Shown here: positions 8,872 to 63,188 of the stretch, piece by piece
Position numbering within the stretch: position 1 is the first letter of the stretch
Layout: every line of letters starts with the position of its first letter
Assembly (NCBI GenBank): GCA_027406905.1
Contig: DAHZHT010000005.1
Location: 50,080 to 114,079 of the forward strand
DNA length: 64,000 nt
Origin: Elusimicrobiota bacterium
GTDB taxonomy: Bacteria; Elusimicrobiota; Elusimicrobia; UBA1565; UBA9628
Reading direction: 5' to 3'
The notes under the pieces: generated by a model
The model's input: only the letters and a program-made list of their open reading frames with translations
Databases searched by the model: none
Told to the model about the DNA's origin: nothing
Translations under genes and position numbers: made by a program

Positions 8872-9780
8872 TTATTTTACGGGCGATTTCCCAAGATTTT
8901 CGGCGAAATCACGAAGGCCCTCTTTTATTCCCCGCATCAAATAGCCAACCGCCTTTTGCAGACGATCCGTCTTTAACCCCGCCTTTAAGGGCCGTTTCGC
9001 CTTTTGCTTGAGCTGCGAAGTCGGAAGTCCTTGAATTAAACTGGGGTCCAATTTAAGAATCCGCGCCGCCTCTCGCGCAAAATCGAGACGGGAGATAAAA
9101 TCGGACCCCGCGGCATGGATGATTCCGCAGGCATCTACTTTAATCAAGTTCTCTAGGGCCAGGGCCAAATCCTGGGCATATGTCGGCGTCGCCCATTGAT
9201 CGGCAGCGACCAGCATCTTCTCTTTTTGAGAAAGCCTTTTAAGCAATTGCATCGTGAAATTGTTGCCGCCCGCCTGAAAACTATAGACAGTGGTCGTGCG
9301 AACCACCAGATTACTCTCTGAAGCCTCTAAAACGGCTTTTTCTCCTTTGAGCTTACTTTCTCCATAGACATTGAGAGGATGCGTCAAAGAGTTTTCATCA
9401 TAAGGGCCGCAGGTTCCGTCAAAAACATAATCGGTAGACAGGAAAACGAGCTTGCCGCCGGGAATTTTTTTCATCTCCCGTGCGATATCGGCAGGAGATT
9501 TTGAATTAATTTGAAAGGCTTTTTCCCGAGAGGATTCGCAACCCTCGACATCCGTCATGGCCCCGCAAATAATGGCGATATCCGGGCGAACGCGAGAGAC
9601 GACCGCTGCGGCTTCTCCTTCTTGAGACAAATCAAGAGGCGTAAGGCCAGAACTCAAGCGAGAAAAACCCGTGCCCAGGGTCTGGTATTTCTCGCCAGAA
9701 AAGACCTTGAGACACAACCGCCCCAACTGCCCGGTCGCCCCAATAACTAAAATTTTCTTAGGCGAAGAATAAATCATCAT
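8872..9780 (-). CDS. rfbD: dTDP-4-dehydrorhamnose reductase-like (RmlD family)
   Basis: KILVIGATGQLG Rossmann motif, STDYVF, PLNVYGESKLKGEK (YxxxK). Colinear with RmlD. Confidence 0.75.
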   Translation of the reverse strand: MMIYSSPKKILVIGATGQLGRLCLKVFSGEKYQTLGTGFSRLSSGLTPLDLSQEGEAAAVVSRVRPDIAIICGAMTDVEGCESSREKAFQINSKSPADIAREMKKIPGGKLVFLSTDYVFDGTCGPYDENSLTHPLNVYGESKLKGEKAVLEASESNLVVRTTTVYSFQAGGNNFTMQLLKRLSQKEKMLVAADQWATPTYAQDLALALENLIKVDACGIIHAAGSDFISRLDFAREAARILKLDPSLIQGLPTSQLKQKAKRPLKAGLKTDRLQKAVGYLMRGIKEGLRDFAENLGKSPVK

Positions 9781-16023: not shown

Positions 16024-16919
16024 TGAGGAATCAACAAAATCTGCGCCAATTCGCCTAATCTCTCGCTATTTAAATTAAGCCCCGCGTTTTGATAGACCGC
16101 CATTAAATTGCGCAAAAGCCGCATCAAAATATGGGAATTAGAGACCGGTCTTAAAACGCTTGGATCATAACTAAACCCGTTTTGGGCCAAACGCTTGCGC
16201 ATTCCGGAAACGTCGAGGGTTTTATTTAAAATGGGATCCCAGAACAAAGACGGGCGCCCGAGCCCGACAATAAAATGGCCCGGAAGACCAATCCCGAAAG
16301 CTGGAATTTTAAGCCGGCGCGCCAATATCAGGAAAAGAATGGACAAGCTGAGGGGCGTTCCCCGCCGCATTTCAATGACCCGGTTTAAATAGTTATTGTC
16401 CGGATCGTAATAGTTTTCCTCATTAATGCGAAAGCCCATGGCGTTGGAAAGAAAGGAGTGGAGGCGCTTAAAGGCCGTCGTCGAATTTTCGGAAGAGGAA
16501 ATATCGCTTTTAATTTTATCCGCGACATGGTCCAACCACTTGCGATAAATCCTTTCATCGAGAAGGGGATAGGCAAAACGCGCGATCAAAAAAGCTCCTT
16601 TTTCCAAATCTCTCTTGGCTTCGCTTAAACGCGCGAATTTCTCAAATTCCTTTTTAGTTTCTCCAAAGACAACGTCTGAGATAAGCCCTTTGGCCTTTTC
16701 AAAAAGCGGAGGATGAGAACGCTCCAAATCCATCAAATAAGGGAGAATTGGCGCTCCGATTTTGAGGATATGATCTCTTACCAAGGAGGCGCTATTGGGC
16801 TCTTCGTCTTCAAGCAACAAGACCAGGCTTCTTAAATTGCGGTCTCTCCCGGTTTTTCCCGCGCGAGCCTTTGTCTTCTCCATACTGGATATTGTATCCC
16901 CTGCCGCTGACTTTTTCAA
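16020..16919 (-). CDS. SirB1/YchA (UPF0162) family transglutaminase-like protein
   Basis: RRGTPLSLSILFLILARRLKIPAFGIGLPGHFIVG matches the family core. Confidence 0.6.
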   Translation of the reverse strand: MKKSAAGDTISSMEKTKARAGKTGRDRNLRSLVLLLEDEEPNSASLVRDHILKIGAPILPYLMDLERSHPPLFEKAKGLISDVVFGETKKEFEKFARLSEAKRDLEKGAFLIARFAYPLLDERIYRKWLDHVADKIKSDISSSENSTTAFKRLHSFLSNAMGFRINEENYYDPDNNYLNRVIEMRRGTPLSLSILFLILARRLKIPAFGIGLPGHFIVGLGRPSLFWDPILNKTLDVSGMRKRLAQNGFSYDPSVLRPVSNSHILMRLLRNLMAVYQNAGLNLNSERLGELAQILLIPQ

Positions 16920-18568
16920 TATGCGCCGCTTCTTACGATATTGGCCGCCTGGATAGAGCCCGAAGCGGCGAGCAATTTGGATAAAATCTTGCGCCCCTCT
17001 AAATCATGGGTCAAATCGTAAACGAAAATCGAGTTTCCGGCGGTGAAAGCGGGAGTTCTCTTTTTAAGCCAGGAAAATACATTCTTATCGGAAAAATAGA
17101 CCGCCTGGAGATTGGTTTCCGAAATGGCGAAGAAAAGCGGCCCGGAATTATCCGGAAGGACCGTCCCATCGCGACGGTCGACATTGGAATAAAACGCCAG
17201 AGGAAAGTATCGGATTCCTTCATATGAGGGATCGGCGACCCCAAAATAAGAAAGAATGATCGGTGGATTGCCGCGCTTTTTTAGTTCCCGTCCCAAATCT
17301 TTCAAGCCCTGCCCCCAATCCAGGCTCGAGTCGGCGAGCAGATGATAACCGCCGCCAGGCCCTCCGGTCAACTCGTTAAAATAAACGAGATAATGGGGGT
17401 AGACCCGAAATACGCTCAACGCCGTCCAAAGCGCGGCAACGATGAAAGTGGCAGCAAACATCGCTTGAGAGAGTCGAAGTTTTAAAGCGGCGACGGCGCG
17501 AGCGGCAAAAACAATCAAAAAAGGATAAATGGGGAGAATATGGCGATAGCCGATATCGGTTTTAGAAATTAAGGCCGCGATAAAGTAAGCCACCGGGGGC
17601 ATTAATAGCCAAATCTCCCTCTCGGAAGGCTTTTTTAACGCCAAATAAATCCCAAGCGCGGCCAAAAGAAGGAGCGGAATCGGGGTTTTGACCGCGAGAG
17701 CCACAGGGAAAAAATCCCAGAATCCATTTTGGCTATAGCGGCCCCATAAAAAAGACGGACGGCCGTGACTGAGTCTTGTCAGTGTTTGCGCAAGCCCGCC
17801 CCAATAAAGGGAAAGACCGCTCAAGCGGTAAGCGAACGCAAGAATCAACGCCGCTAGAAAGACAAAAATGAGAATTTGAGAAATTTTTGGCTGGCGCTTG
17901 GGAGACACCCGCGCCTCGGTTAAAAGAGCGCTGACAATGACTATCGGAAGGATAATCATGCTAAATTTTGAGGCCAAAGCCCCTCCCAAACACAATCCGG
18001 ACAAGGCCCAATCACCAAAGCCGCGATGAGGGCGGGAAAGGAAAAAACAGGTCAAAAAGTAAAAGACAGCCGGCATCGCGTCGGTGGTCGCCAGCGCAAA
18101 ATTGGAAAAAATCGGCGGGCAAAAGGCGAGGAAAAAAGACGCCGCAAGAAAGGCCGTCTCCCGGCCCAAACTCCAAGACCAAATCAAAACTGCGGGAAAC
18201 AAAATTAAAAGAAGACTGATTAAATTCCAAATTCGGGCGGAATTAAGCAAGCGAGAAGCGTCAACCCGATTTTTATAGATGAATTGATCCGAAAAATTAT
18301 AAAGCCTCCCGAAATCGGGATTTAGGGTCATGGTGGAAGGATTTAAAAAAAGAAGCGGAAAAGCCCCCCATATTTCCGCTAAGGGAGGATGATCGCGCCA
18401 GTTCAGCGGCGGCAATTGGGTTTTAAGCGCGAGATATCCGCTCGCCAAATGGACGGGCTCGTCATAGGTCGCGGATGAATCTTCAATCTGGGAAATTCCA
18501 AAAAATACCGCGGTAAAAAACGCGGCCAAGGCCGCCGCTGCCAGCCCCATTATTTTCGCCTTCGACAC
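16916..18568 (-). CDS. GT-C fold glycosyltransferase (family 39, ArnT/PMT-like polyprenyl-phosphate-sugar-dependent transferase)
   Basis: More than 10 predicted TM helices. N-terminal loop with acidic motif typical of GT39. 550 aa. Confidence 0.65.
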   Translation of the reverse strand: MSKAKIMGLAAAALAAFFTAVFFGISQIEDSSATYDEPVHLASGYLALKTQLPPLNWRDHPPLAEIWGAFPLLFLNPSTMTLNPDFGRLYNFSDQFIYKNRVDASRLLNSARIWNLISLLLILFPAVLIWSWSLGRETAFLAASFFLAFCPPIFSNFALATTDAMPAVFYFLTCFFLSRPHRGFGDWALSGLCLGGALASKFSMIILPIVIVSALLTEARVSPKRQPKISQILIFVFLAALILAFAYRLSGLSLYWGGLAQTLTRLSHGRPSFLWGRYSQNGFWDFFPVALAVKTPIPLLLLAALGIYLALKKPSEREIWLLMPPVAYFIAALISKTDIGYRHILPIYPFLIVFAARAVAALKLRLSQAMFAATFIVAALWTALSVFRVYPHYLVYFNELTGGPGGGYHLLADSSLDWGQGLKDLGRELKKRGNPPIILSYFGVADPSYEGIRYFPLAFYSNVDRRDGTVLPDNSGPLFFAISETNLQAVYFSDKNVFSWLKKRTPAFTAGNSIFVYDLTHDLEGRKILSKLLAASGSIQAANIVRSGAY

Positions 18569-32222: not shown

Positions 32223-33725
32223 TTAGGACGCTTCCAAAATTTTTCTCTTGAGGATAACCCTCATTGATCTTCTGGTTTCATCAACGGCGATCTGGCCAAA
32301 TTTTTGTTTAAGCATTTCTAAAAAACCCGGGTCAGAATGGTATTTCATCCAGGCATAATCGCGGAAAGATAAAACCTCTTTTGCGCTCAGATGTTTTGTC
32401 GGCAATGGAAGGGTGTGATACGAATGTTGGGAAAAACCAGAGTAGCTCTTCGGCAGTTCCCAACCCGCTTTTTTAGCCATTCCATGCAGAGGGCTTCCCG
32501 GATAGGCCATCGCGGAATAAAAATTGGCCTCCTCCGTTCTCATTTCAAGCGCCAAATTCAACGTGGCTTGCATGCTTGACTGATCATCCTCCGGAAGGCC
32601 GAAAATATAGTTGGCGATGACGTTAATTCCGTGTTCTCTTATTTTTCTAACAACAGAGCGAATGTCAACGTCCTCAAATCGACCCTTGGTCACATCTTTG
32701 CGCACAAGAGAATTTGCGCTTTCAATTCCCAAGGCCAGCCAGTTGATTCCGGCCTTTTTCATCGTCTCAAGATAGCGATCCTTGACCGTATCCACTCTGG
32801 AATAACACCAAATATTAAAATTGTATCCTCGCTCAATAATAAGCTGGCACAGTTCTAAAAAATGATTCGGATTAAGAACAAAAAGCTCATCGGCAATTTT
32901 GATGTTCTTAATTCCTTGAGAGGCGAAATAATCGAAATCTCTGATAATATGTTTGGGATCCCAATAACGAAAAATAGCGCTCCCATCAGAAAATTCATTT
33001 TTTTGCCGATTGATGATATTGATCATGCAGAAAGAGCATTTCATTGGGCAGCCGAGACTTGTGTAAAGGGCCGCAAAAGGCTGCCTTTGAGATTGATTCG
33101 GATAAGAATGCCAGAGCGAAGTCCTATAATTTTTCATGGGAAGCAAATCCCAGGCGACTCCAGGCAAATCTTTTGGTAAATCTTCCTTGGCCACGATCGG
33201 AGAGGGAGAATTGAAAATGACTTTTCCGTTCTCTCTGTAACCGAGCCCAAGCACTTTGTCCAATCGATCGGAAAGATTTCCAGCTAAAAGGTTAGACAGG
33301 GTGTAAACTCCTTCGTTTTGACAAACAAAGTCTATGCTGGGATGCTTCCCCATCACTTCTTGAGGCAAGGCCGCGACATGTCCACCCACAAAAATAATTT
33401 TAATTTCCGGGAAATTCTTCTTAAGATGATCCGCCAGAGCCGTGGCTCCCTCCATATTCTGAGAACTCGCGGAAGGTTGCTGTCCATAAACCACGAAACA
33501 GGCAAGGCGGGGATTCAGATTTATAGTATGGGAAACGGCTTCATCATCCGTTAAGCGCAATGCTTCACAATCCAAGAGGTCAACGCGGTATCCTTTCATG
33601 CGACAGTGAGAGGCAAGCATTCCGGCCCAGATGGGCGGTTCAATCGCGGAGAAATCCTCGCTTAAATCCTGATAAACGCGATGTCCCGAATTGGAATGAA
33701 TAAAAAGAACATCAAGTTGATTCAT
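32223..33725 (-). CDS. cobalamin (B12)-binding radical SAM enzyme (class-B-like)
   Basis: N-terminal B12-binding Rossmann-like region. CxxxCxxC as CPMKCSFC. 500 aa. Confidence 0.75.
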   Translation of the reverse strand: MNQLDVLFIHSNSGHRVYQDLSEDFSAIEPPIWAGMLASHCRMKGYRVDLLDCEALRLTDDEAVSHTINLNPRLACFVVYGQQPSASSQNMEGATALADHLKKNFPEIKIIFVGGHVAALPQEVMGKHPSIDFVCQNEGVYTLSNLLAGNLSDRLDKVLGLGYRENGKVIFNSPSPIVAKEDLPKDLPGVAWDLLPMKNYRTSLWHSYPNQSQRQPFAALYTSLGCPMKCSFCMINIINRQKNEFSDGSAIFRYWDPKHIIRDFDYFASQGIKNIKIADELFVLNPNHFLELCQLIIERGYNFNIWCYSRVDTVKDRYLETMKKAGINWLALGIESANSLVRKDVTKGRFEDVDIRSVVRKIREHGINVIANYIFGLPEDDQSSMQATLNLALEMRTEEANFYSAMAYPGSPLHGMAKKAGWELPKSYSGFSQHSYHTLPLPTKHLSAKEVLSFRDYAWMKYHSDPGFLEMLKQKFGQIAVDETRRSMRVILKRKILEAS

Positions 33726-33830: not shown

Positions 33831-34826
33831 ATGAAGGCTCCTTTTTATTCCTCTCTCTCTAGCGGCATGAGAGATTGGAAGCTCTACCGACTCATGCTTA
33901 AAATCAGGATGTCGGAGCAGAAAATTATTGATATTTATCCGAGCGATAAAATACAGAGCCCCATTCATCTTTCGATAGGACAAGAAGCCGTGGCTGCCGG
34001 TGTTTGTCTCGCCCTTAAATCCAGCGATCGAATTTATGGCACATACCGGGGACATGGAATTTACATTGCAAAGGGGGGAGATCTTGGGAAGATGTTCTCC
34101 GAGCTCTACGGAAAAGAAACCGGCTGTTCCAGAGGAAAAGGGGGATCCATGCATCTCTCCGCTCCGGAAGTCGGATTAGTCGGATGTTCAGCGATTGTTG
34201 GCAGTTTTATTCCCGTAGCCACGGGAGACGCTTTGGCCGCTCAAATGCGAAAAGATTCTCGCGTGGTCTGTTCGTTTTTTGGAGATGGAGCCGTTGATGA
34301 GGGCGTTTTTTTTGAAAGCGTTAATTTCGCCATTCTTAAAAATCTTCCCATTGTTTATGTTTGCGAGAACAATGGCTATGCGATCCACTCAAAAGTTTTG
34401 GATCGCCACAAACAGCCTTCCCTCGCCCGTCTCGTCTCTGGTCTCGGCTTGATTGGAAAACGCCATGATGGGAATGACGCTCCTGTCGTTTTTAAAACAA
34501 TGAGCCAAGCCATCACTCAAGCGCGTAAAGGCAAAGGCCCCGTTTTCCTGGAATATATGACCAATCGATGGCATGAACATGTCGGCCCCGGAACAGATTA
34601 TCAGGAGTCTTATCACTCCCCCAAAGACAAAGAAAATAATTCGCGCAATGACCCCATCAAAAAAATGGAAAAAATTTTGAAAAAACGGAAGGGATTTTCA
34701 CTCAGGGCGGATATTCTCAAGAAAGAAATTCAAAATGAGATAGACCAGGCCGTCAATTTCGCGGAGAAAAGCCCTTTCCCGTCCCTTCAGTCGCTTTATC
34801 ATGATCTTTATGCGGAGTCTCGATGA
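33831..34826 (+). CDS. thiamine-diphosphate-dependent dehydrogenase E1 alpha-like subunit
   Basis: ThDP-binding motif GDGAVDEGVFFESVNFA...CENNGYAI. Similar to pyruvate/acetoin dehydrogenase E1 alpha. Confidence 0.8.
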   Translation: MKAPFYSSLSSGMRDWKLYRLMLKIRMSEQKIIDIYPSDKIQSPIHLSIGQEAVAAGVCLALKSSDRIYGTYRGHGIYIAKGGDLGKMFSELYGKETGCSRGKGGSMHLSAPEVGLVGCSAIVGSFIPVATGDALAAQMRKDSRVVCSFFGDGAVDEGVFFESVNFAILKNLPIVYVCENNGYAIHSKVLDRHKQPSLARLVSGLGLIGKRHDGNDAPVVFKTMSQAITQARKGKGPVFLEYMTNRWHEHVGPGTDYQESYHSPKDKENNSRNDPIKKMEKILKKRKGFSLRADILKKEIQNEIDQAVNFAEKSPFPSLQSLYHDLYAESR

Positions 34827-35854
34827 AAAGGATGAATTACGGCCAAGCTATTCGTTCGGCGCTTCTCCATTCCATGGAACAAGATTCCTCTATTTTTATC
34901 ATGGGAATTGGAGTTGACGATCACAAGGCTGTTTTTGGAACAACGGCTGGATTGGTTGGGCGTTTTGGGAGAAATCGCGTTTTTGACACCCCCATTTCAG
35001 AATCTGGAATGACGGGCATCGCCATAGGAGCGGCCTTGGCGGGCATGAAGCCAATCCATATTCATATTCGCTCCGATTTCCTTTATCTTGCCATGGATCA
35101 GATCGCCAACATCGCCGCCAAGTGGTCTTCCATGTTTGGAGGCAACGCTTCCGTCCCGTTAGTCATTCGCTCCATCGTTGGACGAAGTTGGGGGCAAGGG
35201 GCGCAGCATTCTCAAAGCTTGCAATCGCTCTTTATGCATATTCCAGGCCTTAAGGTTCTCATGCCGACAACACCTTCCGAGGCGCAAGGCCTTCTTATCG
35301 CGGCGATCCAAGATCCTAACCCCGTACTAATTTTTGAGCATCGGCTTCTCTATGATATTATCGGAGATGTTCCCGATACGCCGACTGCGTTGCCGCTTGG
35401 CCGCGCGATAATTCGCCGAAAAGGAAGCGATATGACTCTTGTCGCCGGATCATATATGGCGGTAGAAAGCTTAAAGGCCGCAGAGTTTCTGTCCAAACAT
35501 GGCGTGGAGGCGGAAATTGTAGATCCAGTGTCTCTTGTCCCCCTGGATGAAAATAGAATTTTAGCATCCGTCGCAAAAACGGGGAGGGTCATCGTTATTG
35601 ATTCCAGCTGGACCACTTGCGGAATGAGCGCCGAGATCGCCGCCCTTATCGTTGAAAAAGGATTTCATTTCCTCAAAGCTCCGATACGCCGTCTTGGAAT
35701 GCAGCCCGTTGTCTGCCCCGTGAGCAAACCCCTGGAAGCAGCTTTCTATCCTAACGCAAAACTGATTGCCGCAGAGGCATTAACAATGCTGGGACGGGAT
35801 TTCCCAAAAACTCCCGCGCCTGAATTGCTCAACACGTTCAAAGGACCTTTTTAA
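34823..35854 (+). CDS. E1 beta-like (transketolase-type pyrimidine-binding and C-terminal domains) subunit
   Basis: Similar to 2-oxoacid dehydrogenase E1 beta. 4-nt overlap with the E1 alpha gene. Confidence 0.8.
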   Translation: MKRMNYGQAIRSALLHSMEQDSSIFIMGIGVDDHKAVFGTTAGLVGRFGRNRVFDTPISESGMTGIAIGAALAGMKPIHIHIRSDFLYLAMDQIANIAAKWSSMFGGNASVPLVIRSIVGRSWGQGAQHSQSLQSLFMHIPGLKVLMPTTPSEAQGLLIAAIQDPNPVLIFEHRLLYDIIGDVPDTPTALPLGRAIIRRKGSDMTLVAGSYMAVESLKAAEFLSKHGVEAEIVDPVSLVPLDENRILASVAKTGRVIVIDSSWTTCGMSAEIAALIVEKGFHFLKAPIRRLGMQPVVCPVSKPLEAAFYPNAKLIAAEALTMLGRDFPKTPAPELLNTFKGPF

Positions 35855-37111: not shown

Positions 37112-37950
37112 GGCGAGTTCCGTTATGCCGATTTCAATCGTGAATCCGCTCAATTGGGGTTTTTTCACCGGGAAATAATTAGTTGTTGAGGGGCACTGGT
37201 GTCCGGGGAAAATCAGAACTCGAAGCATAGTTGAGGTTCCGTATTCCGCAACATGGATAATTTTCTCTCCGGTAGCCGCAGCAAATCGATCAGGCTGAGG
37301 CGATCCAAAAGGGTATTCTGAACGAGCTGTTGGAGCGGACAAGCGAGCGATGAAAGCGACATTGAAACTTGATGTAGGCCAGGAGCAAAAAGTACGTCAT
37401 GGACGCCCAAACCTGCGTGAGCACGGCGTTCTTGGAGGTGCCGAGGAACGTCTTTATCCGAAGGTGCGGCGTGATCCACTTGAAGAAAAGCTCCAGACAG
37501 AGGTCGATAGTGCCGGAATCGAAAGCGCACACGGGGTTTTTGAAGCGAAATTGATGATTGGGGGCGATGGCCTGGCAGCGCTCCAGAAGCTGGTAGAAGA
37601 GTTTCTCCATGATGCGGGAATCGCGTTTGGCGTTGGCGTCGGCCAAGGTCGATCGCTTCACGGCGGGCAATCCCCAGGTGGTAGAGCTTGGGCTCCTGGG
37701 TCTCCAGGGCGGTCTGGATGTCGCACAGGCTATTCTTGTTGGCGGCTTGAGCATACAGCAGCACCGTCAGTTGGTTCCAGGTCGAGAACTTTTTGACGTA
37801 ATGGTCTCCGCCGAAGTCGGAAACGGCTTGGTCGAACTGATGTCGGGGCAAAAGCGTCAACAACTGGTTCATGATTGTGTTAGAATACATTTGAAGAGTC
37901 CTCCGTCGGTATATTTAGCTTGCTCAGCACAAGTATTCTGCCAATGATGG
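37112..37950 (-). mobile_element. IS4-family insertion sequence remnant (3'-truncated)
   Basis: Two consecutive minus-strand reading frames give an IS4-family transposase N-terminal half (LLPRHQFDQAVSDFGGDHYVKKFSTWNQLTVLLYAQAANKNSLCDIQT; RSTLADANAKRDSRIMEKLFYQLLERC). No catalytic DDE C-terminal half. No inverted repeats identified. Confidence 0.65.
37213..37890 (-). pseudogene. frameshifted, truncated IS4-family transposase
   Basis: Covers ORFs 37213..37890 and 37290..37754, which are in different frames. Together they span about 250 aa, where a full-length transposase is more than 400 aa. Confidence 0.65.
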
Positions 37951-37998: not shown

Positions 37999-38937
37999 AT
38001 GAGAATGCGTATTTTTTTGACTGGCGGTAGCGGAATGGTTGGCAGAAATTTTCTTGAACATTCTGCCATAAGCGGATTCGATGTACTCGCCCCACACAGG
38101 AATGAGCTTAACTTGTTGGATTTTCAGGCAGTGACGGCATACGTTCGCGCACATAACCCTGATATTGTCATTCATGCCGCCGGTCGAGTGGGCGGTATTG
38201 AGGCCAATATGCGGGAGCCTGTTCGCTTTCTGATGGAAAACATGGATATGGGGCGCAATGTTGTTTTGGCGGCGCGTTCCATCGGAGTAAAGAAATTGTT
38301 GAATCTGGGGAGTTCTTGCATGTATCCTAGGAATGCCCCTAATCCACTGCATGAAGACATGGTGCTGAGCGGCGAACTAGAGCCAACCAATGAAGGATAT
38401 GCGCTTGCCAAGGTTGTTGTCGCGCGTCTATGTGAATATATTTCTCGCGAGAATCCGGAATATAAATACAAGACATTAATCCCGTGCAATCTCTATGGCC
38501 GCTATGACAACTTCGAACCATCGCGATCGCATTTGATGCCGGCAATTATTCATAAAATCCAAGAGGCTAAGTCCTCTGGATCAAGTGAAGTCACAATATG
38601 GGGTAATGGTATCGCGCGGCGAGAATTTATGTACGCTGGCGATTTGGCGGATTGCTTGATTGAGTCCGTTCGTCGTTTTGATAGTCTTCCCAATGTTATG
38701 AATGTGGGCGTTGGAGAAGATGCCAGCGTTGATGATTACTACAAAACCACTGCTGAAGTTATCGGTTATGGAGGCAAATTCACGCATGACTTAACCAAAC
38801 CGGTTGGAATGATGCGTAAGTTAGTATCGACGCAGAGGGCACAAGAGTGGGGATGGCGCGCTACAACTTCTTTGCGCGAAGGAATCAGGAAAGCATATGA
38901 CTTTTATGTGCAAGCATCAAAATTGAGAGTGGTATAA
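37999..38937 (+). CDS. fcl: GDP-L-fucose synthase family 3,5-epimerase/4-reductase (Fcl/ColC-like)
   Basis: Colinear with Fcl: MRIFLTGGSGMVGRN, LGSSCMYP, LEPTNEGYALAK, NLYGRYDNFEPSRSHLMPA, TIWGNGIARREF. Confidence 0.85.
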   Translation: MRMRIFLTGGSGMVGRNFLEHSAISGFDVLAPHRNELNLLDFQAVTAYVRAHNPDIVIHAAGRVGGIEANMREPVRFLMENMDMGRNVVLAARSIGVKKLLNLGSSCMYPRNAPNPLHEDMVLSGELEPTNEGYALAKVVVARLCEYISRENPEYKYKTLIPCNLYGRYDNFEPSRSHLMPAIIHKIQEAKSSGSSEVTIWGNGIARREFMYAGDLADCLIESVRRFDSLPNVMNVGVGEDASVDDYYKTTAEVIGYGGKFTHDLTKPVGMMRKLVSTQRAQEWGWRATTSLREGIRKAYDFYVQASKLRVV

Positions 38938-39046: not shown

Positions 39047-39991
39047 ATGAAAAAAGAAAAAATACTCATAACGGGGGGAGCGGGATACCTTGGATCGGTG
39101 ATGACTCGCCTTTTCCTTGAAACAGGCTATCACGTGCTTGTTCTGGATAATTTTATGTATGGACAATCCAGCCTTCTGGATTTTTGTGTTTTTGATTCTT
39201 TTGAAGTTGTGCGTGGAGACTGCCGCGATGAAGCTCTTATGAAAGGCCTCATCAAGGACGTGGATGCGGTCATTCCCTTGGCCGCATTGGTTGGCGCCCC
39301 TATCTGCAACCGCGATAAAATCGCCGCTGCGACCACCAATAGAGACGCGATCCAAATGCTCTGCCGCATAGCCGCCCCATCTCAAAAAATTCTTTTCCCC
39401 GTCACAAACAGCGGATATGGAATAGGAGAGAAAGGGAAATTTTGCACCGAGGAGAGTCCGCTGCGGCCAATTTCTTTTTACGGCCAAACAAAGGTTGAAG
39501 CGGAAAAAGCCATCTTGGATCGAGGCAATGGAATAACTTTTAGATTAGCGACAGCCTTTGGCGCTTCCCCCCGGATGCGAATGGATCTCCTGGTCAACGA
39601 TTTTGTCTACCGCGCGCTGGTGGACCGAGCTCTCATAGTGTTTGAGGGACACTTTAAGCGTAATTATATCCATGTCAGGGATATCGCGCGAGTTTTTCTT
39701 CATGGATTAAATAATTTCGAGACGATGAAAAATCAAACCTACAACGTGGGTCTTGAAGATGCCAACCTTTCAAAAATTGAGCTCTGCGCTCTTATTCAAA
39801 AAACTCTTCCGCAATTTGTCTATCACCAAGCGGAGATAGGAGAAGATCCCGATAAGCGCGATTACATCGTTTCTAACGCAAAAATACTCGCCACGGGATT
39901 TAAGCCCCAATGGAGCATCGAACGCGGAATCAAGGAACTCATTAAATGTTACACCGCTCTTGGAAAGGTCAATCTCTATGGAAATATTTAG
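39047..39991 (+). CDS. NAD-dependent epimerase/dehydratase (extended SDR)
   Basis: ILITGGAGYLGS Rossmann motif and YGQTKVEAEK (YxxxK). Lacks the T(D/E)xVYG motif of 4,6-dehydratases. Confidence 0.7.
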   Translation: MKKEKILITGGAGYLGSVMTRLFLETGYHVLVLDNFMYGQSSLLDFCVFDSFEVVRGDCRDEALMKGLIKDVDAVIPLAALVGAPICNRDKIAAATTNRDAIQMLCRIAAPSQKILFPVTNSGYGIGEKGKFCTEESPLRPISFYGQTKVEAEKAILDRGNGITFRLATAFGASPRMRMDLLVNDFVYRALVDRALIVFEGHFKRNYIHVRDIARVFLHGLNNFETMKNQTYNVGLEDANLSKIELCALIQKTLPQFVYHQAEIGEDPDKRDYIVSNAKILATGFKPQWSIERGIKELIKCYTALGKVNLYGNI

Positions 39992-39997
39992 AACCCG

Positions 39998-40993
39998 ATG
40001 ATCATCACTCGAACTCCCTTTCGCATGTCTTTTTTTGGCGGCGGAACGGATTATCCCGATTGGTATCGTGAGCATGGCGGAGCGGTTGTCGCCGCGACTA
40101 TCGACAAATATTGTTACATCACCTGCCGCTATTTGCCACCGTTTTTTAATTACAAGAGCCGCATTCTCTATTCAAAGATAGAATTAGTCGAAAATAATTC
40201 AAAAATTGAACATCCCGCCGTCCGCGCCGTTTTATCCGAATTGGGCATCGATTCAGGATTAGAAATTCATCATGATGGAGATCTTCCCGCCCGCACGGGT
40301 CTTGGTTCAAGTTCGGCTTTTCTTGTAGGCCTTCTCCATGCTATTTCCGCTTTAAAAAATCGAATGTCAACAAAAATGGAACTGGCAAAGACGGCGATAC
40401 ACGTTGAACAAACCGTGCTGAAAGAGAATGTCGGCTGCCAAGATCAGGTCATTACCGCCTTTGGCGGATTACAACGCATCGATTTTCAAAAAAGGGGCGA
40501 TATTCATATCAACCCCATTGTTATCAGCGAAGAGCGGCTGAAATTCCTGGAAAGTTCGGTCCTTCTCTATTTTACCGGCTTTTCCCGTATTGCCTCGGAA
40601 ATTGTTAAAGAGCAACTACAAAACATTCCTCAAAAAGCCCACGAGCTTTTACGCATTCGCGAGATGGTCGATGAATCAATTGAAATCCTCTCTGGAAATG
40701 GCGATTTAAACGAGTTTGGCAAACTCCTGGATGAAAGCTGGGAGCTTAAAAGAAGGCTCAGCTCCAAGGTTTCCTCCCCTGCTATTGATGAAATCTATAA
40801 AGCCGCGAAATCAGCCGGGGCTTTGGGCGGAAAAATCATGGGCGCCGGCGGCGGGGGATTTATGATGTTGTTTGCCCCCCCCGAAGCTCATCCGCGCATT
40901 CATGAAAAGCTAAAACATCTTTTAAGAATCCCCTTTCATTTTGAAAACGAGGGCAGTCACATTATTTACTATCACCCCAATGGAGGTCGCTAA
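39998..40993 (+). CDS. GHMP-family sugar kinase (heptose-7-phosphate kinase HddA / fucokinase-like)
   Basis: N-terminal TPFRMSFFGGGTDYPDWY and GHMP motif PARTGLGSSSAFLVGLL. Confidence 0.7.
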   Translation: MIITRTPFRMSFFGGGTDYPDWYREHGGAVVAATIDKYCYITCRYLPPFFNYKSRILYSKIELVENNSKIEHPAVRAVLSELGIDSGLEIHHDGDLPARTGLGSSSAFLVGLLHAISALKNRMSTKMELAKTAIHVEQTVLKENVGCQDQVITAFGGLQRIDFQKRGDIHINPIVISEERLKFLESSVLLYFTGFSRIASEIVKEQLQNIPQKAHELLRIREMVDESIEILSGNGDLNEFGKLLDESWELKRRLSSKVSSPAIDEIYKAAKSAGALGGKIMGAGGGGFMMLFAPPEAHPRIHEKLKHLLRIPFHFENEGSHIIYYHPNGGR

Positions 40994-41693
40994 CGCCATC
41001 GAAGTAGATGCCATAATTCTTTGCGGAGGGCAAGGCCGCCGCCTCGTGAAAGTTCTCCCTGACTTGCCTAAAGCTCTTGCCCCTATTGGAAACAAATCTT
41101 TCCTCGATATTCTACTCGACTACGCTGTCCAAGAAGGACTGCGGCGTTTTATTTTTTGCCTTGGACACCGCGCAAGCGCCATAGAAGAGAGATTAAGCGC
41201 GCGGCAGGATTGCGATATCGTTTTTTCAAAAGAGACCGTTCCGCTTGGGACCGCTGGCGCTCTCAAATTATGCGAACCATTGAGAAGAAGTCGAACATCC
41301 CTAGTGATGAATGGCGACTCTCTATGCAATTTCAACATCAAGGAGTTTCTTAAAGCCCATGTAGAAAATAACGCTTCGGCAAGCGTCGCGGCGGTCATGG
41401 CGCCCGATAGAGATGACGGCGGATTTATCGAGTTCGCAAAGGATTATCAGATCACGCGATTTAATGAAAAATATGGAAGCGCGAAATATATTAACGCTGG
41501 AGTTTACGCGCTCAACTCCGAGCTTTGGGGGAAAATTCCCCCAGAGCGACCCTGTTCCATCGAGAAAGACGTCTTCCCGCAACTCGTGGGACACGGCCTT
41601 TTCGCCTGGCCCACTCACGCGCCACTTTTTGACATTGGAACTCCGGAACGCCTTGAGGCTTTTCGGCTCTTATATGCTAGTAGAGATCCTTGA
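40980..41693 (+). CDS. sugar-1-phosphate nucleotidyltransferase (HddC / GDP-sugar pyrophosphorylase-like)
   Basis: AIILCGGQGRRL...LPKALAPIGNKSFLD. About 238 aa. Overlaps the kinase gene end. Confidence 0.7.
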   Translation: MEVANAIEVDAIILCGGQGRRLVKVLPDLPKALAPIGNKSFLDILLDYAVQEGLRRFIFCLGHRASAIEERLSARQDCDIVFSKETVPLGTAGALKLCEPLRRSRTSLVMNGDSLCNFNIKEFLKAHVENNASASVAAVMAPDRDDGGFIEFAKDYQITRFNEKYGSAKYINAGVYALNSELWGKIPPERPCSIEKDVFPQLVGHGLFAWPTHAPLFDIGTPERLEAFRLLYASRDP

Positions 41694-42882: not shown

Positions 42883-44127
42883 TCAGGAATTTTGCTGGAG
42901 TTCGGAAGATGGAAATATCCGCGAAAGAGCGGCTCCGGAGAAAATAATCAATAGGGCTAAGGCTGGAAGCTGGTAGCGATTGTCCCAATACCCGACGAAA
43001 ATGTGAAGACTGTAGTAGCAAAATCCCGCAAAGGCAAGAGTAGAAGCTATTGTCCAATTTGTACGCCGTAAATACATTTCCCAAAAGGCAAGAATCAAGG
43101 TCGCTAGTTCAAAAACCCAAAGGACAGCCCTAATCACAATGGGCCCCCAACGTCCTTCTTGGCGATAAACGGAAATGGGTTGATCAATCCCGAACATCGC
43201 CGAATGGCTGGTCAACCAAAAATGAATCAGGCGAGACGGGAGTTTAAAGATCAATCGCGGCCAATTGGCTTTATAATTATTCAAGGCCATCCGATAAAAT
43301 TCGGCATCCGTCTCGATCTCGCTTCTCCCCACGGCCACCTGTTTTTGGACTGCCCCAACGTCGAGAGGGCGGGAAAGCTGCGAACCGCACCAAAGCGCGG
43401 GCCCTCCCCCTGTCGCCACCGGAATCCAAACTCCCATGACCTGTTTGTTTCTCAAAGACCAAGGAAGAAGCGTTAAGTAGGCGCACAGGAGAACTCCCGC
43501 AAGATGCCGCAACAGGCGCGGTTTTTTATGATGGAAAAGAAGAATAAGGAATGCGGCTCCTGGAGGAAATAAAATAAGGCTGGGCCGACAGAGAATCGCC
43601 AGTCCAAGCACAAAGCCCGCGAAAGCAAACAACCACTCCAGATTTTTCTTTAAATTTGACTCAAAAGCGTAAAGTAAAAGACAAAGGGCGGACGACCATG
43701 TCATGATAAACAGAGTCTCCGTCATAATTTCCGCGGTATAAGCGATAAAAACAGGATGAAGAGCGTAAAAGGCCGCCCCAAAAATCGCTCCCCTGCGTTC
43801 ATTGAGAGCATAAAGACCAAAAAGATAGATAAGCCCGATCGTTATTGTGTCTAAGAATGCTTGCGCTGCGCGCGCGTAAAACCACGGCCTATTGGAAAGC
43901 ATGACAAAAATAGAAAGGAATGCCGGATATAAAGGAGGGCGTATCGCCGTAGGCTGATTTCTAATCATGGAAAATTCGCCATGGAGGGCTATATTTTGGG
44001 CAATGCCGGCATACTCTACGCTATCTCCCAACAAAGGCGCCGATCTTTTTACCACCACCATGCTGATTCGAAGGATAAATCCCATGACCAAAACAATAAA
44101 CAAAGGATTTCTTAAAAAATTTTTCAT
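42883..44127 (-). CDS. GT-C fold glycosyltransferase (family 39 ArnT/PMT-like), second copy
   Basis: Polytopic membrane protein. Start set at MKNFLRNPLFIVLVMGF, whose ATG overlaps the GT2 stop (ATGA). Confidence 0.6.
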   Translation of the reverse strand: MKNFLRNPLFIVLVMGFILRISMVVVKRSAPLLGDSVEYAGIAQNIALHGEFSMIRNQPTAIRPPLYPAFLSIFVMLSNRPWFYARAAQAFLDTITIGLIYLFGLYALNERRGAIFGAAFYALHPVFIAYTAEIMTETLFIMTWSSALCLLLYAFESNLKKNLEWLFAFAGFVLGLAILCRPSLILFPPGAAFLILLFHHKKPRLLRHLAGVLLCAYLTLLPWSLRNKQVMGVWIPVATGGGPALWCGSQLSRPLDVGAVQKQVAVGRSEIETDAEFYRMALNNYKANWPRLIFKLPSRLIHFWLTSHSAMFGIDQPISVYRQEGRWGPIVIRAVLWVFELATLILAFWEMYLRRTNWTIASTLAFAGFCYYSLHIFVGYWDNRYQLPALALLIIFSGAALSRIFPSSELQQNS

Positions 44128-44840
44128 TTCGATCCCTTCCGCCGCCAATAGAAAATTTCTCGAAGGATCTGTGCCATATAGGCTAAACCCCAACGCACAA
44201 TTTGGAGCTTCCGGTCTCCGCCTAGGCGCTTTGGCTCATCTCCAGGAATTTCCGTCACTCTCAGACGTGTTTTTGCGCAGCGGACGGAAAGGATAGGTTC
44301 CCAACTGATGCGTGTACAAAAAAATTTCTCCGGCGTGTAGGTCGAGTCCTTATCTAAATCAAGCAACCCAATAAGGTCTTTCTTATACGCGCGATACATG
44401 ACCATGGCGTCAGTGTATTGTCCGCCAAAAAGGAAGTTGATTGTATAGGTAAAAAGCCAATTGCCAAAAGCGGTCATGAAATCATCATCTTCGCTTTTGG
44501 CGCCGGCCAGGTAGCGAGACACAATCACCATGTCATAACCTTCTTTGATTTTCTCAATCAATGGGGGAATTAATTCTGGGAGAGAATTCCCATCAGGGCT
44601 GAAGGTGATAATGACATCACCTTTGATTAAGCTCATTGCTTCCAAATAGCCATGGCGCAACCCGCGCTCTTTCTGAACGATAACATCAAATCCCTGAGAA
44701 TGACAATACCCCACCGTGCCATCATTAGAGCCGCCATCAAGGACTAAAATTTGGTCAACCCAACGGCGATCAATAAGCGGCATAATTTGACGCATCCCAA
44801 TTTCTTCATTTAAGACTGGAACCAAAAGGGTGGTCTTCAT
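44124..44840 (-). CDS. GT2 polyprenyl-phosphate sugar synthase (ArnC/DPM1-like)
   Basis: VPVLNEE...ILVLDGGSNDGT...DxD-type motifs. 238 aa. Confidence 0.75.
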   Translation of the reverse strand: MKTTLLVPVLNEEIGMRQIMPLIDRRWVDQILVLDGGSNDGTVGYCHSQGFDVIVQKERGLRHGYLEAMSLIKGDVIITFSPDGNSLPELIPPLIEKIKEGYDMVIVSRYLAGAKSEDDDFMTAFGNWLFTYTINFLFGGQYTDAMVMYRAYKKDLIGLLDLDKDSTYTPEKFFCTRISWEPILSVRCAKTRLRVTEIPGDEPKRLGGDRKLQIVRWGLAYMAQILREIFYWRRKGSK

Positions 44841-52775: not shown

Positions 52776-53357
52776 ATGCCGAAAGCGACCCTGTCTTGCC
52801 CCAATCTAATAGATTGTTCCCCTCAAAGCCCGCGCATTAGCGGACCATGGGCTATTTTTACGACCCCTTATTTCCCGCTGGCGATGACGACTCTTACCGC
52901 CGGAAGCGCGATCTGGGATGGAGCCCAAACGCGCTTTGGAAAAACTCTTTGGCAAAGTCTTGATTCCGCCGTTATCGCCTCTGTTTCCAACACCGGAATG
53001 AAATATGCCTTCCAAAGGGCCCGGCCGACCCAGGACCTCGGAGCCAACGCCTGGTTTTCCGGGCCTCAGAGCCAAAGTTTTCCCTCCAGCGACGTGTCTA
53101 ACACTGCGGCCCTTGTCTCTCCTTTTATTTATGAATACGGATCGGATCATCCGATGGTGTATCTTTTGACTCTTTTGCCCGTGGCGGACGCGGCAGCCCG
53201 AGTAGAAGCGCGCGGGCATTACCCGACAGACACTATTGGCGGCATGGCCTTAGGTTTTGCCAGCGGCTGGGCGGCCAGGCATTTTTTCAAATCGCCGTTT
53301 ACCTTGCAGATTATTCCGGGGAGAGACTGGTCTGTTGGAATATCGCGAAAATTCTAA
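52776..53357 (+). CDS. PAP2-family phosphatase (lipid phosphate phosphatase-like)
   Basis: KYAFQRARP (KX6RP) and ARVEARGHYPTD (SRX5HX3D-like). Start moved from the ORF-track TTG at 52425, which overlaps accC, to the first internal ATG. That coordinate is plus or minus 1 nt. Confidence 0.6.
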   Translation: MPKATLSCPNLIDCSPQSPRISGPWAIFTTPYFPLAMTTLTAGSAIWDGAQTRFGKTLWQSLDSAVIASVSNTGMKYAFQRARPTQDLGANAWFSGPQSQSFPSSDVSNTAALVSPFIYEYGSDHPMVYLLTLLPVADAAARVEARGHYPTDTIGGMALGFASGWAARHFFKSPFTLQIIPGRDWSVGISRKF

Positions 53358-54040
53358 TTAGCGGAATCTTCTAGGACAAATTGAAAAGTCGTCCCGCCGC
53401 AAACGATAATATCTCCGTCCTTTAAGAGGGTAGCGGCGGTGATTTTCTCGCCATTGACAAGGGGATATCCGGAAACGACCGGAATTAAGACATACCCCTC
53501 GGGTTTGCGGTAAATAGAAGCGACCACCTCGGGAGCCGAGCCGAAAAACCCCGTTCCTTTAATGGGGATTTGAACGCGATCGGATTTGCCGATATAGGTT
53601 GAAAGTCCTTTAAGCTCGTAATCAGGCGGGCCCTCCAAGCCCTTTAACACCCGCAAGCGTCCGAGTTTGGACGGAGTTTTGGCCGACTGAGCCAGAATTT
53701 CGGATTGTTTCTCCGGAGTTAGGAAAACAGTTTTATCTCCCGCTGCGGGAGCGGGATCTCGGATAAAGACCAATGAGTGTTTGGCGATTCCAATAACGTC
53801 TTCATGATGAAGCCCGCATTTTTTAATTCGCTTTTCATTGACATAGGTTCCATTGGTCGAATCGAGGTCCTCGACATAATAGGTTTCTCCTTCCAGCGTA
53901 ATTTTACAGTGATTGGAAGAGATGGCGGGATTGTCAATGACAATATCGTTATTCGGGGCTCTCCCAACCAGGAGAGGGCCTTTATTTAAATTGATTTCCT
54001 TAAGCACCGCCACGTTAAACTTAAGAAGAAGCTTTGGCAT
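53354..54040 (-). CDS. tandem FHA-domain protein
   Basis: N-terminal FHA: LLVGRAPNNDIVIDNPAISSNHCKI...YVEDLDSTNGTYVN. A second, degenerate FHA-like domain lies in the C-terminal half. Confidence 0.75.
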   Translation of the reverse strand: MPKLLLKFNVAVLKEINLNKGPLLVGRAPNNDIVIDNPAISSNHCKITLEGETYYVEDLDSTNGTYVNEKRIKKCGLHHEDVIGIAKHSLVFIRDPAPAAGDKTVFLTPEKQSEILAQSAKTPSKLGRLRVLKGLEGPPDYELKGLSTYIGKSDRVQIPIKGTGFFGSAPEVVASIYRKPEGYVLIPVVSGYPLVNGEKITAATLLKDGDIIVCGGTTFQFVLEDSAN

Positions 54041-54839
54041 TCTTTCCTTTAAGGATCGATTTCATTTTAGACCACGAAGCCCCCAAGGCCGATTTTTCTC
54101 CGCCTTGTTCCACTCGGGCGACTACAACCGTGATATTATCAATTCCACCGGCTCCATTCGCTTCCGAAACCAAATTCGCGGCCATATTTTTAACGTCTTC
54201 TTGGCGCGATAAAATTTCTTGGATACGAAAATCCGCGACCATTTTAGTGAGCCCATCAGAAGCCAGTAAAATGATGTCCCTATAAAAGAGAGGGTGCGTG
54301 GAAACATCGACTTCCACATCCGGGTTAGAGCCCACCGCGCGAGTTAAAAGATTTTGAAGTTCTGAAGTTGCGGCTTCTTCTTCACGGAGAAGACCTCTTC
54401 TGATTTGTTCCCGGACGACGGAGTGATCTTCGGTCAGGCAGGATAACACGCCTTGCCTTAAAATATATCCGCGGCTGTCTCCCACATGCGCGATGGTCAA
54501 GGTCTTCCCATCGCCGCAAGCGCACACAAGAGTGGTTCCCATTCCGGCATCCTTGCTCATCAAGCGCCCTTTTTCATAGACAAGTCTGTTGGCCGCTTTA
54601 ACCGCAGCCTCTAAATCGGCGGCGGAAACCCGGTATTCATCATCAGAACATTTCTGTATCAAAAAATCTTTTACTAAAGAAACCGCCAAAGAGCTTGCCA
54701 CCTCTCCGGAATTGTGCCCACCCATCCCGTCGGCGACGATAAAAATACCTTTATTGCCGTCGAAGAAAAATGAGTCCTCGTTATTATTTCTTACCCGTCC
54801 AATATCTGTCAGCCCCGCCGCTTGAAAAAGAGGCTTCAT
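54021..54839 (-). CDS. PP2C-family Ser/Thr phosphatase
   Basis: GLTDIGRVRNNNED, IVADGMGGHNSGEVAS, DGLT. Confidence 0.85.
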   Translation of the reverse strand: MKPLFQAAGLTDIGRVRNNNEDSFFFDGNKGIFIVADGMGGHNSGEVASSLAVSLVKDFLIQKCSDDEYRVSAADLEAAVKAANRLVYEKGRLMSKDAGMGTTLVCACGDGKTLTIAHVGDSRGYILRQGVLSCLTEDHSVVREQIRRGLLREEEAATSELQNLLTRAVGSNPDVEVDVSTHPLFYRDIILLASDGLTKMVADFRIQEILSRQEDVKNMAANLVSEANGAGGIDNITVVVARVEQGGEKSALGASWSKMKSILKGKNAKASS

Positions 54840-63029: not shown

Positions 63030-63188
63030 CTAACGACGGATTAAAACAACCATCGAGTAGCCAAGAAAAATTCCGACAATGCCGGCAATTCCGGCCAATG
63101 TCGGCGGAGCCGGAACCGGCAAGCGCAAAAACCCAAAAAGAAAACCGCACCCGGCGCCGCTGATTAGACTCAGAATAATCGTTTTCAT
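63030..63188 (-). CDS. 52-aa two-TM small membrane protein translationally coupled to the upstream GT2
   Basis: Not in the ORF track because it is under 60 aa. MKTIILSLISGAGCGFLFGFLRLPVPAPPTLAGIAGIVGIFLGYSMVVLIRR. Its ATG overlaps the GT2 stop (ATGA). Confidence 0.4.
   Translation of the reverse strand: MKTIILSLISGAGCGFLFGFLRLPVPAPPTLAGIAGIVGIFLGYSMVVLIRR

Follow-up and report, generated by a model that had tools for sequence, protein, structure and literature searches.

The 64,000-nucleotide stretch of Elusimicrobiota DNA analyzed here (the window) encodes a split, thiamine diphosphate (ThDP)-dependent E1 alpha/beta pair that, judged by its likeness to published descriptions, probably acts as an E2-independent carboligase of the alpha2beta2 type, of the kind termed aKADH2, in the tailoring of a guanosine diphosphate (GDP)-heptose. 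E1-type pairs of this kind (AviB1/B2, Pau11/12 and KbDH-a/b) install two-carbon branches on keto-sugars (PMC4753412; PMC12247030), a precedent for the view taken in a preliminary description of this DNA, where AviB1/AviB2 served as the example of an E1-like class proposed to transfer two-carbon units onto keto-sugars. The enzyme type is already known from actinomycete antibiotics; what appears to be undescribed is its setting among GDP-heptose and envelope-glycan genes, and full-text literature searches found no paper in which an E1-type pair is linked with GDP-heptose genes.

Both reading frames of the pair were found exactly where the preliminary description had placed them:

33831–34826, plus strand: E1 alpha (331 aa); E1_dh domain PF00676 (E=1e-57); predicted ThDP/Mg-binding, GDG at 151–153 and NN at 180–181
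34823–35854, plus strand: E1 beta (343 aa); Transket_pyr PF02779 (E=5e-31) and Transketolase_C PF02780 (E=1e-30); Lys285 and an FKGPF tail

The GDG...NN motif that had been noted in E1 alpha (G151-D152-G153...N180-N181) is intact and, in an alignment, invariant in 23 relatives. E1 beta keeps the cofactor-activating Glu60 (Glu59 of the Geobacillus enzyme, Bst) and the catalytic His129 (Bst His128), both of which are invariant across 66 family members. The alpha stop and the beta start share an ATGA, which is the 4-nt overlap described earlier, and a single nucleotide, not the two originally counted, separates the beta stop from the start of a gene for a ColD-like sugar dehydratase. Overlap and spacer suggest co-translation, and the tight junction between E1 beta and the dehydratase fits joint expression. 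Separate alpha and beta subunits with an intact ThDP site, the lack of a cognate E2 or E3 in the window and in 86 related loci, and a setting in a nucleotide-sugar cluster that generates ring ketones are all as expected of an aKADH2-type enzyme. The aKADH2 pairs of avilamycin (AviB1/AviB2), paulomycin (Pau11/Pau12), aldgamycin (AlmDI/DII) and kibdelomycin (KbDH-alpha/beta) are likewise split E1 enzymes without E2 or E3 in nucleotide-sugar pathways. Krug et al. reportedly catalogued ~120 aKADH2 clusters in silico in 2024, and the present cassette may be among them.

Relation to dehydrogenase-complex E1 subunits

The pair might be taken for a standard E1 of a catabolic pyruvate or acetoin dehydrogenase, with its E2 and E3 encoded elsewhere and its position in a sugar locus accidental. 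It does share its fold, ThDP motif and catalytic Glu and His residues with the E1 subunits of pyruvate dehydrogenase (PDH), acetoin dehydrogenase and branched-chain 2-oxo acid dehydrogenase; for both subunits the best-scoring family models are those of PDH E1, with ~35–40% identity to the PDH proteins, and all catalytic residues are conserved, including those for reductive acylation. What sets the pair apart from complex-forming E1s is the lack of E2 and E3, the sub-threshold scores on profile models, a lysine at the docking position, the FKGPF tail and a separate clade. E1 alpha reaches 282.2 bits on the NCBIfam PDH model TIGR03182, under its curated cut-off of 393.85, and E1 beta likewise falls short on two models (303.4 against 321 bits on NF006667, and 285.3 against 454 bits).

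Pfam scans of all window reading frames of at least 137 aa revealed no lipoyl, 2-oxoacid_dh or Pyr_redox domains, and tblastn with genuine E2 and E3 sequences gave no match in the window at E<=1e-4, while the positive controls, two plasmid-borne PDH operons of Priestia and Desulfotalea, matched each other. The same search, again with working positive controls, found no E2 or E3 homologues in the 1.43 Mb of the 86 related loci (83 retrieved by looking up contigs and scanning species-representative genomes, with plasmid carriers located by tblastn), and the sugar context is kept across phyla. The absence of E2 and E3 genes nearby, as first reported, therefore extends to the whole window and to these 86 loci.

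The C-terminus of complex-forming E1 beta is located at the docking site, and Bst Glu285 and human Asp289 are residues that we take to contact the peripheral subunit-binding domain of E2, a docking role reportedly described by Frank et al. in 2005 and by Korotchkina and Patel in 2008. Lys285 of the window E1 beta occupies this alignment column, a charge reversal, so that the conservation of E2-docking residues, which the preliminary description had named as grounds for abandoning its proposal, is not found. Across 66 E1 beta relatives the column holds Lys or Arg in 42 and Glu in 2, and it is acidic in the E2-linked E1 betas of Bst, Priestia and Desulfotalea (Glu, Asp and Asp among the E2-linked controls). 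E1 beta furthermore carries a C-terminal extension of ~30 aa, conserved in its family, ending in ...F(K/R)GPF (FKGPF in the window, 35764–35854), whereas the E2-linked control E1 betas are short at this end and lack it. Neither the acidic residue nor the free native C-terminus of a docking-competent subunit is present.

Tails ending in F(K/R/A)GP(F/Y) also occur in two further related loci (L002 and L014), in Azospirillum lipoferum (L084) and in a lankacidin-type cluster of Streptomyces griseofuscus (L086). The ~30-residue GP(F/Y) tail is missing from the E2-linked E1 betas and also from the cassette E1 beta of Solidesulfovibrio magneticus RS-1. Such a tail could, as far as the alignments indicate, serve as a marker of stand-alone E1 carboligases.

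A phylogenetic comparison with genuine E2-linked E1s had been suggested at the outset. In a neighbor-joining tree of concatenated alpha and beta subunits, 99/100 bootstraps set two E2-linked E1s apart from the whole group of 67 E2-less pairs, which is supportive and not decisive because only two outgroup sequences were included. Taken with the ATGA overlap and the single nucleotide before the dehydratase gene, these findings make an ordinary PDH or acetoin dehydrogenase role very unlikely.

The surrounding cassette and its conservation

The genes around the pair are as follows:

32223–33725, minus strand: B12-binding radical S-adenosylmethionine (SAM) enzyme (500 aa); PF02310 and PF04055, CX3CX2C at C226/C230/C233
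35856–37028, plus strand: ColD-type sugar 3-dehydratase dependent on pyridoxamine or pyridoxal phosphate (PMP/PLP; 390 aa); His187 replaces the aminotransferase Lys
37213–37890, minus strand: truncated remnant of an IS4-family transposase (DUF4372 N-terminal part); PF14294 (E=2e-25), IS4 model NF033592 over residues 11–67 only
37999–38937, plus strand: GDP-L-fucose-synthase-like (Fcl-like) short-chain dehydrogenase/reductase (SDR) of the GMER family; NF047922 at 310 bits against a cut-off of 500, PDB GDP-fucose synthases at E=6e-77
39047–39991, plus strand: Cj1427-type C4-dehydrogenase, the second SDR; PDB 6vo6/6vo8 at 385 bits, full length, ~64% identity
39998–40993, plus strand: GHMP sugar kinase of the HddA/WcbL type; HddA the best NCBIfam model, heptose kinases the best PDB matches
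40941–41693, plus strand: sugar-1-phosphate nucleotidyltransferase (probably guanylyl), HddC/ManC-like; PF00483
41677–42876, minus strand: L-2-hydroxyglutarate oxidase LhgO, a flavin adenine dinucleotide (FAD) oxidoreductase; NF008726 at 307.1 against an equivalog cut-off of 299
42883–44193, minus strand: GT-C glycosyltransferase (PMT_2/ArnT-like), polyprenyl-phosphate-sugar-dependent; PF13231 (E=5e-16)
44124–44840, minus strand: GT2 polyprenyl-phosphate glycosyltransferase (AglJ/ArnC/DPM1-like); PF00535

The gene directly downstream of the pair had been called ColD-like, and its product aligns end to end with the ColD structures 2gms, its best PDB match, and 3gr9 (E=1e-54). The motif FGHQFSTIEGG, which reads YSHHIATMEGG in ColD, places His187 at the position of ColD His188. 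Histidine stands at this position in 25/25 ColD-like orthologues and in 11/11 members of a second dehydratase family (DegT2), while the DegT3 aminotransferases have lysine. The enzyme is predicted from this signature to make a 3-deoxy-4-keto acceptor.

For the C4-dehydrogenase the next-best structure after 6vo6 and 6vo8 reaches only 84 bits, and the protein is by this similarity of the Cj1427 type. That 6vo6 is Cj1427 of Campylobacter jejuni follows from the published primer Cj1427cF918, the reverse complement of which encodes RAFKMMKV, the C-terminal peptide of the 6vo6 chain. Cj1427 is a GDP-D-glycero-D-manno-heptose C4-dehydrogenase whose tightly bound NADH is re-oxidized by alpha-ketoglutarate, which becomes L-2-hydroxyglutarate (PMC10680097). 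An FAD oxidoreductase that passes the LhgO cut-off fits this chemistry; its predicted part is to turn the by-product L-2-hydroxyglutarate back into alpha-ketoglutarate. Because a dedicated L-2-hydroxyglutarate oxidase is co-encoded, the cassette lends genomic support to the ping-pong cycle of Cj1427 and suggests that the by-product is recycled in vivo; no lhgO-type partner is mentioned in the C. jejuni literature examined. An lhgO gene accompanies a Cj1427-like gene in six loci: the window, L085 (24356–25558), L002 and L003 (5935–7164), L006 (1904–3094) and L013 (17490–18569).

The kinase has its top PDB matches among heptose kinases (3k85, 4usk, which is WcbL, and 4n3o; E=3e-41 to 3e-32) and is 54% identical to the kinase of the RS-1 cassette. 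The nucleotidyltransferase scores highest on the models of mannose-1-phosphate guanylyltransferase (110 bits) and of HddC (92 bits), under cut-off in each case. Its translation probably begins only at the ATG near 40980; homology to the RS-1 counterpart begins at 41007. Kinase and nucleotidyltransferase are only distant relatives of HddA and HddC, yet these remain their best functional analogues given that heptose kinases are the top structural matches.

The radical SAM gene diverges from the E1 operon and is a conserved member of the cassette, with orthologues of 41–75% identity in 21–30 loci including RS-1. Among NCBIfam models it scores best on HpnJ (149 bits) and BchE (122 bits), well short of the cut-off in each case, and its top PDB matches are AprD4, TokK and OxsB; cyclization, methylation and diol dehydration are candidate roles. 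The Fcl-like SDR is a candidate C5 (or 3,5) epimerase, a reductase of the branch or ring carbonyl, or both, and in RS-1 a gene of 36% identity lies between E1 beta and the DegT gene. Between dehydratase and SDR genes the cassette is interrupted by the transposase remnant, which is outside the pathway. The slot it occupies holds a GDP-mannose-4,6-dehydratase-like gene in 17 relatives and another SDR in 8, so that the remnant and the Fcl-like SDR found there suggest a past gene replacement.

The genes for LhgO, GT-C and GT2 run on the minus strand and converge with the plus-strand cassette genes. The best NCBIfam models of the GT2 are AglJ and dolichyl-phosphate hexose transferase (under cut-off), and orthologues of 52–63% identity are present in 20–22 cassette loci including RS-1; its predicted role is to attach the completed sugar to a lipid carrier. 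The GT-C, which has a counterpart annotated as 'phospholipid carrier-dependent glycosyltransferase' in the RS-1 cassette and a match of 31% identity in L015, is predicted to carry out the final transfer to an envelope acceptor. Promoter-like sites were within one standard deviation of shuffled sequence and terminator-like sites about two above it, and none of the sites was informative by itself.

Homologues of E1 alpha number in the thousands, and the closest 120 (55–74% identical) come from metagenomes and metagenome-assembled genomes. Clustering of all reading frames of the related loci gave the following family counts:

E1 alpha, 81 loci; E1 beta, 66 loci
Cj1427-like C4-dehydrogenase, 41 loci; GHMP kinase, 40 loci
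ColD-like dehydratase, 25 loci; second dehydratase family DegT2, 11 loci
Nucleotidyltransferase, 23 loci; B12-binding radical SAM, 21 loci; GT2, 20 loci
GDP-mannose-4,6-dehydratase-like, 17 loci; Fcl-like, 14 loci
SIS (GmhA-like), 7 loci; LhgO, 6 loci

That the pair is embedded in a sugar locus, as the preliminary description held, is a general property of its relatives: nucleotide-sugar genes surround it in 36 of the 42 loci with at least 6–7 kb on each side, and the pair usually lies directly before a His-type 3-dehydratase. The C4-dehydrogenase is present in 23/42 of these well-flanked loci, and of these 20/23 have a His-type dehydratase and 21/23 the kinase. The hosts are labeled Elusimicrobia, Omnitrophota, Nitrospira/Nitrospirae, Binatia, Acidobacteriota, Planctomycetes, Myxococcota, Verrucomicrobia and several Alphaproteobacteria. 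The synteny of E1 alpha, E1 beta and ColD-like gene with C4-dehydrogenase, kinase, nucleotidyltransferase, radical SAM and GT2 genes recurs in Elusimicrobia, Omnitrophota, Nitrospira, Acidobacteria, Planctomycetes, Alphaproteobacteria and Desulfovibrionia.

Two cultured carriers were identified by tblastn, in both cases on plasmids: S. magneticus RS-1 (pDMC1) and A. lipoferum 4B (AZO_p6). On pDMC1 the gene order is GT2, GT2, radical SAM, NUDIX, kinase, E1 alpha, E1 beta, Fcl-like, DegT (His type), C4-dehydrogenase, nucleotidyltransferase, GT-C glycosyltransferase, lhgO and an SIS protein, and ten of the cassette proteins match window proteins at 25–58% identity. This arrangement indicates that LhgO, GT2 and GT-C are part of the same system as the E1 pair. 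AZO_p6 carries HAD-IIIA, C4-dehydrogenase, E1 alpha, E1 beta and His-type DegT genes inside a glycan locus. Genes of the heptose pathway thus stand beside the cassette elsewhere, namely the SIS (GmhA-like) gene of RS-1 and the HAD-IIIA gene of A. lipoferum. The location on plasmids of cultivable strains makes the cassette experimentally accessible.

Some loci have unusual neighbors. In A. lipoferum (L084, 17394–19659) the dehydratase gene is followed directly by genes for methylthioadenosine phosphorylase and methylthioribose-1-phosphate isomerase, both of methionine salvage, and then by sulfotransferases, which are unusual in a glycan locus. A gene for a split transketolase N-terminal part accompanies the E1 pair in L046 (15082–15909), L049, L057, L069, L077 and L082, usually together with a 4,6-dehydratase-like gene, which puts two ThDP enzymes in one sugar cluster. 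Streptomyces plasmid matches were set aside as sugar comparators, as they are located in a lankacidin-type polyketide cluster and a catabolic cluster and not in sugar clusters.

Predicted pathway and the choice of acceptor

The gene content suggests a six-step route. The HddA-like kinase and the HddC-like nucleotidyltransferase would turn a heptose phosphate into GDP-heptose. By orthology to a characterized enzyme, the Cj1427 orthologue would then oxidize C4 at the expense of alpha-ketoglutarate, and the cluster LhgO would re-oxidize the resulting L-2-hydroxyglutarate to alpha-ketoglutarate. The ColD-type enzyme would next strip the C3 hydroxyl, as its catalytic His signature and an in vitro precedent suggest, with glutamate used and alpha-ketoglutarate and ammonia released. 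Its product, GDP-3-deoxy-4-keto-heptose, would have a single carbonyl, at C4. The dehydratase would have to precede the E1 pair, since branching uses up the C4 ketone on which the dehydratase depends. The E1 pair would then, by analogy with AviB1/B2, KbDH and YerE, decarboxylate pyruvate to hydroxyethylidene-ThDP and add this acetyl-anion equivalent to the C4 carbonyl, which would yield the tertiary alcohol GDP-4-C-acetyl-3-deoxy-heptose, a branched nonose. To judge by the genes present, further tailoring of this product may fall to the Fcl-like SDR and the B12-binding radical SAM enzyme, after which GT2 would load the sugar on polyprenyl phosphate and GT-C would move it to the envelope acceptor.

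Precedents exist for each half of this chemistry. In vitro, the Raushel group obtained GDP-D-glycero-3-deoxy-4-keto-heptose (m/z 616.08) by combining Cj1427 with the C3-dehydratase of serotype HS:5 (PMC10680097); that was an artificial mix of serotypes, whereas in the window both enzymes are co-encoded. The capsular GDP-heptose enzymes of C. jejuni (Cj1423–Cj1430 and the HS:5 C3-dehydratase) share with the window the Cj1427 orthologue, activation of the HddA/HddC kind, a ColD-type C3-dehydratase and an Fcl-like SDR. Unlike the window cassette, the C. jejuni pathways are without a ThDP enzyme, a radical SAM enzyme or LhgO, and they end with reduction at C4. The aKADH2 sugar pairs, for their part, have been proposed or shown to branch C3 or C4 keto-sugars and accept only pyruvate as donor (PMC12247030; PMC4753412). 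They place the pyruvate-derived acetyl group on a ring ketone, the branch then being reduced or otherwise tailored, and the same is proposed here. The known cases act on thymidine diphosphate (TDP)-deoxyhexoses of Gram-positive secondary metabolites, in contrast to the predicted GDP-heptose and envelope glycosylation of the window cassette, which is found mostly in uncultured lineages of Gram-negative type and has a B12-binding radical SAM partner.

The same logic is found in yersiniose A synthesis (DdhA-D, YerE, YerF), which proceeds by formation of a 4-keto sugar, PMP-dependent 3-deoxygenation, ThDP-dependent acyl addition at C4 and reduction (PMC9306805). There YerE performs the acyl-anion branching of cytidine diphosphate (CDP)-3,6-dideoxy-4-keto-glucose (PMC9306805). 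YerE is a single-chain, FAD-containing member of the acetolactate-synthase-like decarboxylase superfamily, whereas the window enzyme is of the two-subunit E1 type; its substrate is a CDP-3,6-dideoxy-hexose, as opposed to a probable GDP-heptose keeping the C6 hydroxyl and C7; and the window dehydratase, being of the ColD type, needs no E3 reductase, unlike that of the yersiniose pathway. A 2025 review assigned the branched sugars of lipopolysaccharide to YerE-like enzymes and aKADH2 to secondary metabolites (PMC12247030, Figure 1 legend).

Because the C4-dehydrogenase is ~64% identical to Cj1427, the acceptor is probably GDP-3-deoxy-4-keto-heptose and not a 6-deoxyhexose. The same branching from pyruvate might nevertheless be directed at a GDP-3,6-dideoxy-4-keto-hexose made by GMD and ColD, with a yersiniose-like octose as product, and several genes lean that way: the dehydratase is closest to the ColD enzymes, which act on GDP-4-keto-6-deoxymannose, the nucleotidyltransferase scores slightly higher on mannose-1-phosphate guanylyltransferase than on HddC, the Fcl-like SDR is nearest to genuine GDP-fucose synthases, and the 4,6-dehydratase-like gene of 17 related loci stands between the dehydratase and the C4-dehydrogenase. 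We nonetheless consider a hexose acceptor improbable here. A 4,6-dehydratase is missing from the window, in which tblastn searches for the enzyme of the relatives gave only weak SDR cross-matches, and the Cj1427 orthologue and the recycler of its co-substrate are both present; the kinase's closest structural relatives are heptose kinases, and the RS-1 cassette includes the GmhA-like gene. Of the original proposal, therefore, the proposed branching of a sugar by the pair is supported, with a GDP-heptose derivative a more likely acceptor than GDP-4-keto-6-deoxymannose.

It is also conceivable, though unlikely in our estimate, that the pair belongs to the sugar pathway without E2 and performs another reaction: it could use a different 2-oxo acid as donor, extend a side-chain aldehyde, or act on a carbonyl made by the radical SAM enzyme. 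The best structural match of the latter is the diol-dehydratase AprD4, and the C6-C7 diol of the heptose could become a carbonyl; alpha-ketoglutarate is both made and used in the pathway; and some relatives encode the extra split transketolase. An E2-less pair from this clade, whose beta subunit likewise ends in ...GP[FY], moreover occurs in the S. griseofuscus lankacidin-type cluster (L086, 11989–17519 of pSGRIFU1), a polyketide/nonribosomal peptide cluster without sugar genes, where it lies beside a condensation-domain protein and its alpha subunit is 47% identical to that of the window over 79% of its length. Accordingly, sugar chemistry is not the only setting of the stand-alone E1 clade. 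Yet the tightest partner of the window pair is the 3-dehydratase, whose product would carry its one carbonyl at C4 next to a 3-deoxy position, as in branching of the YerE type. The characterized aKADH2 sugar enzymes take only pyruvate, and the radical SAM gene is missing from many cassette loci, including that of A. lipoferum.

Several points weigh against a pyruvate-dependent carboligase in a GDP-heptose pathway. Both the pyruvate donor and the acceptor are inferred. E1 alpha is 41% identical to the RS-1 cassette protein, barely above the ~40% that it shares with genuine PDH E1 alpha. The kinase scores 139.7 on HddA against an equivalog cut-off of 600 and the nucleotidyltransferase 91.9 on HddC against 300, which places neither within those families, and Pfam and homology scans of the window found no GmhA or GmhB. 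The transposase remnant splits the operon. The 4,6-dehydratase-like gene carried by 17 relatives means that acceptors may differ between loci and that some members of the family may branch 6-deoxy sugars.

A possible link to caryose-type sugars, and wider setting

E1-type ThDP enzymes that build quaternary carbons in sugars are so far known only from a few actinomycete antibiotic pathways, the branched sugars of Gram-negative envelopes having been ascribed to the unrelated YerE type, and the cassette would extend this chemistry to GDP-heptoses and envelope glycans across many phyla. The predicted 4-C-branched 3-deoxy-nonose, possibly cyclized or methylated by the B12-binding radical SAM enzyme, would be a sugar without prior description, and the pair is predicted to offer new carboligases for making chiral tertiary alcohols.

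A more speculative possibility, to which we give little credence at present, is that the cassette makes caryose-type higher sugars, carbocyclic or bicyclic, with the radical SAM enzyme closing the ring. Caryose is a 4,8-cyclo-3,9-dideoxy-nonose whose biosynthesis has been reported as unknown (PMC9092360). Its nine carbons equal the seven of a heptose and a two-carbon unit, its 3-deoxy position corresponds to the ColD-type dehydratase, and its C9 methyl and quaternary C4 bonded to C8 match what the E1 pair would produce by adding an acetyl unit from pyruvate. Closure of the C7-C8 bond could fall to the radical SAM enzyme, whose nearest named relatives, HpnJ and BchE, are proposed ring-forming or ring-contracting enzymes, and the GMER-like SDR could supply the C5 epimerization of a caryose-type sugar. 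If this were so, a large set of uncultured bacteria as well as S. magneticus RS-1 would carry carbocyclic envelope sugars. Bradyrhizose was also considered as a product and set aside, as its proposed 11-gene cluster is described differently.

Beyond the cassette, the window flanks hold housekeeping genes recognized by Pfam (IF-2, NusA, TruB, TsaD, SHMT, AccC and CoaD). Other envelope-glycan genes in the window are a PMT_2 GT-C (16916–18568, minus strand), an RmlD-like dTDP-4-dehydrorhamnose reductase (8872–9780, minus strand) and a GT2 (63185–63892, minus strand). At 53354–57406 the minus strand encodes, one after another, a protein with an FHA domain, a phosphatase of the PP2C type and a Ser/Thr kinase with a CHASE2 sensor, apparently a eukaryote-like signaling module unconnected with the cassette.

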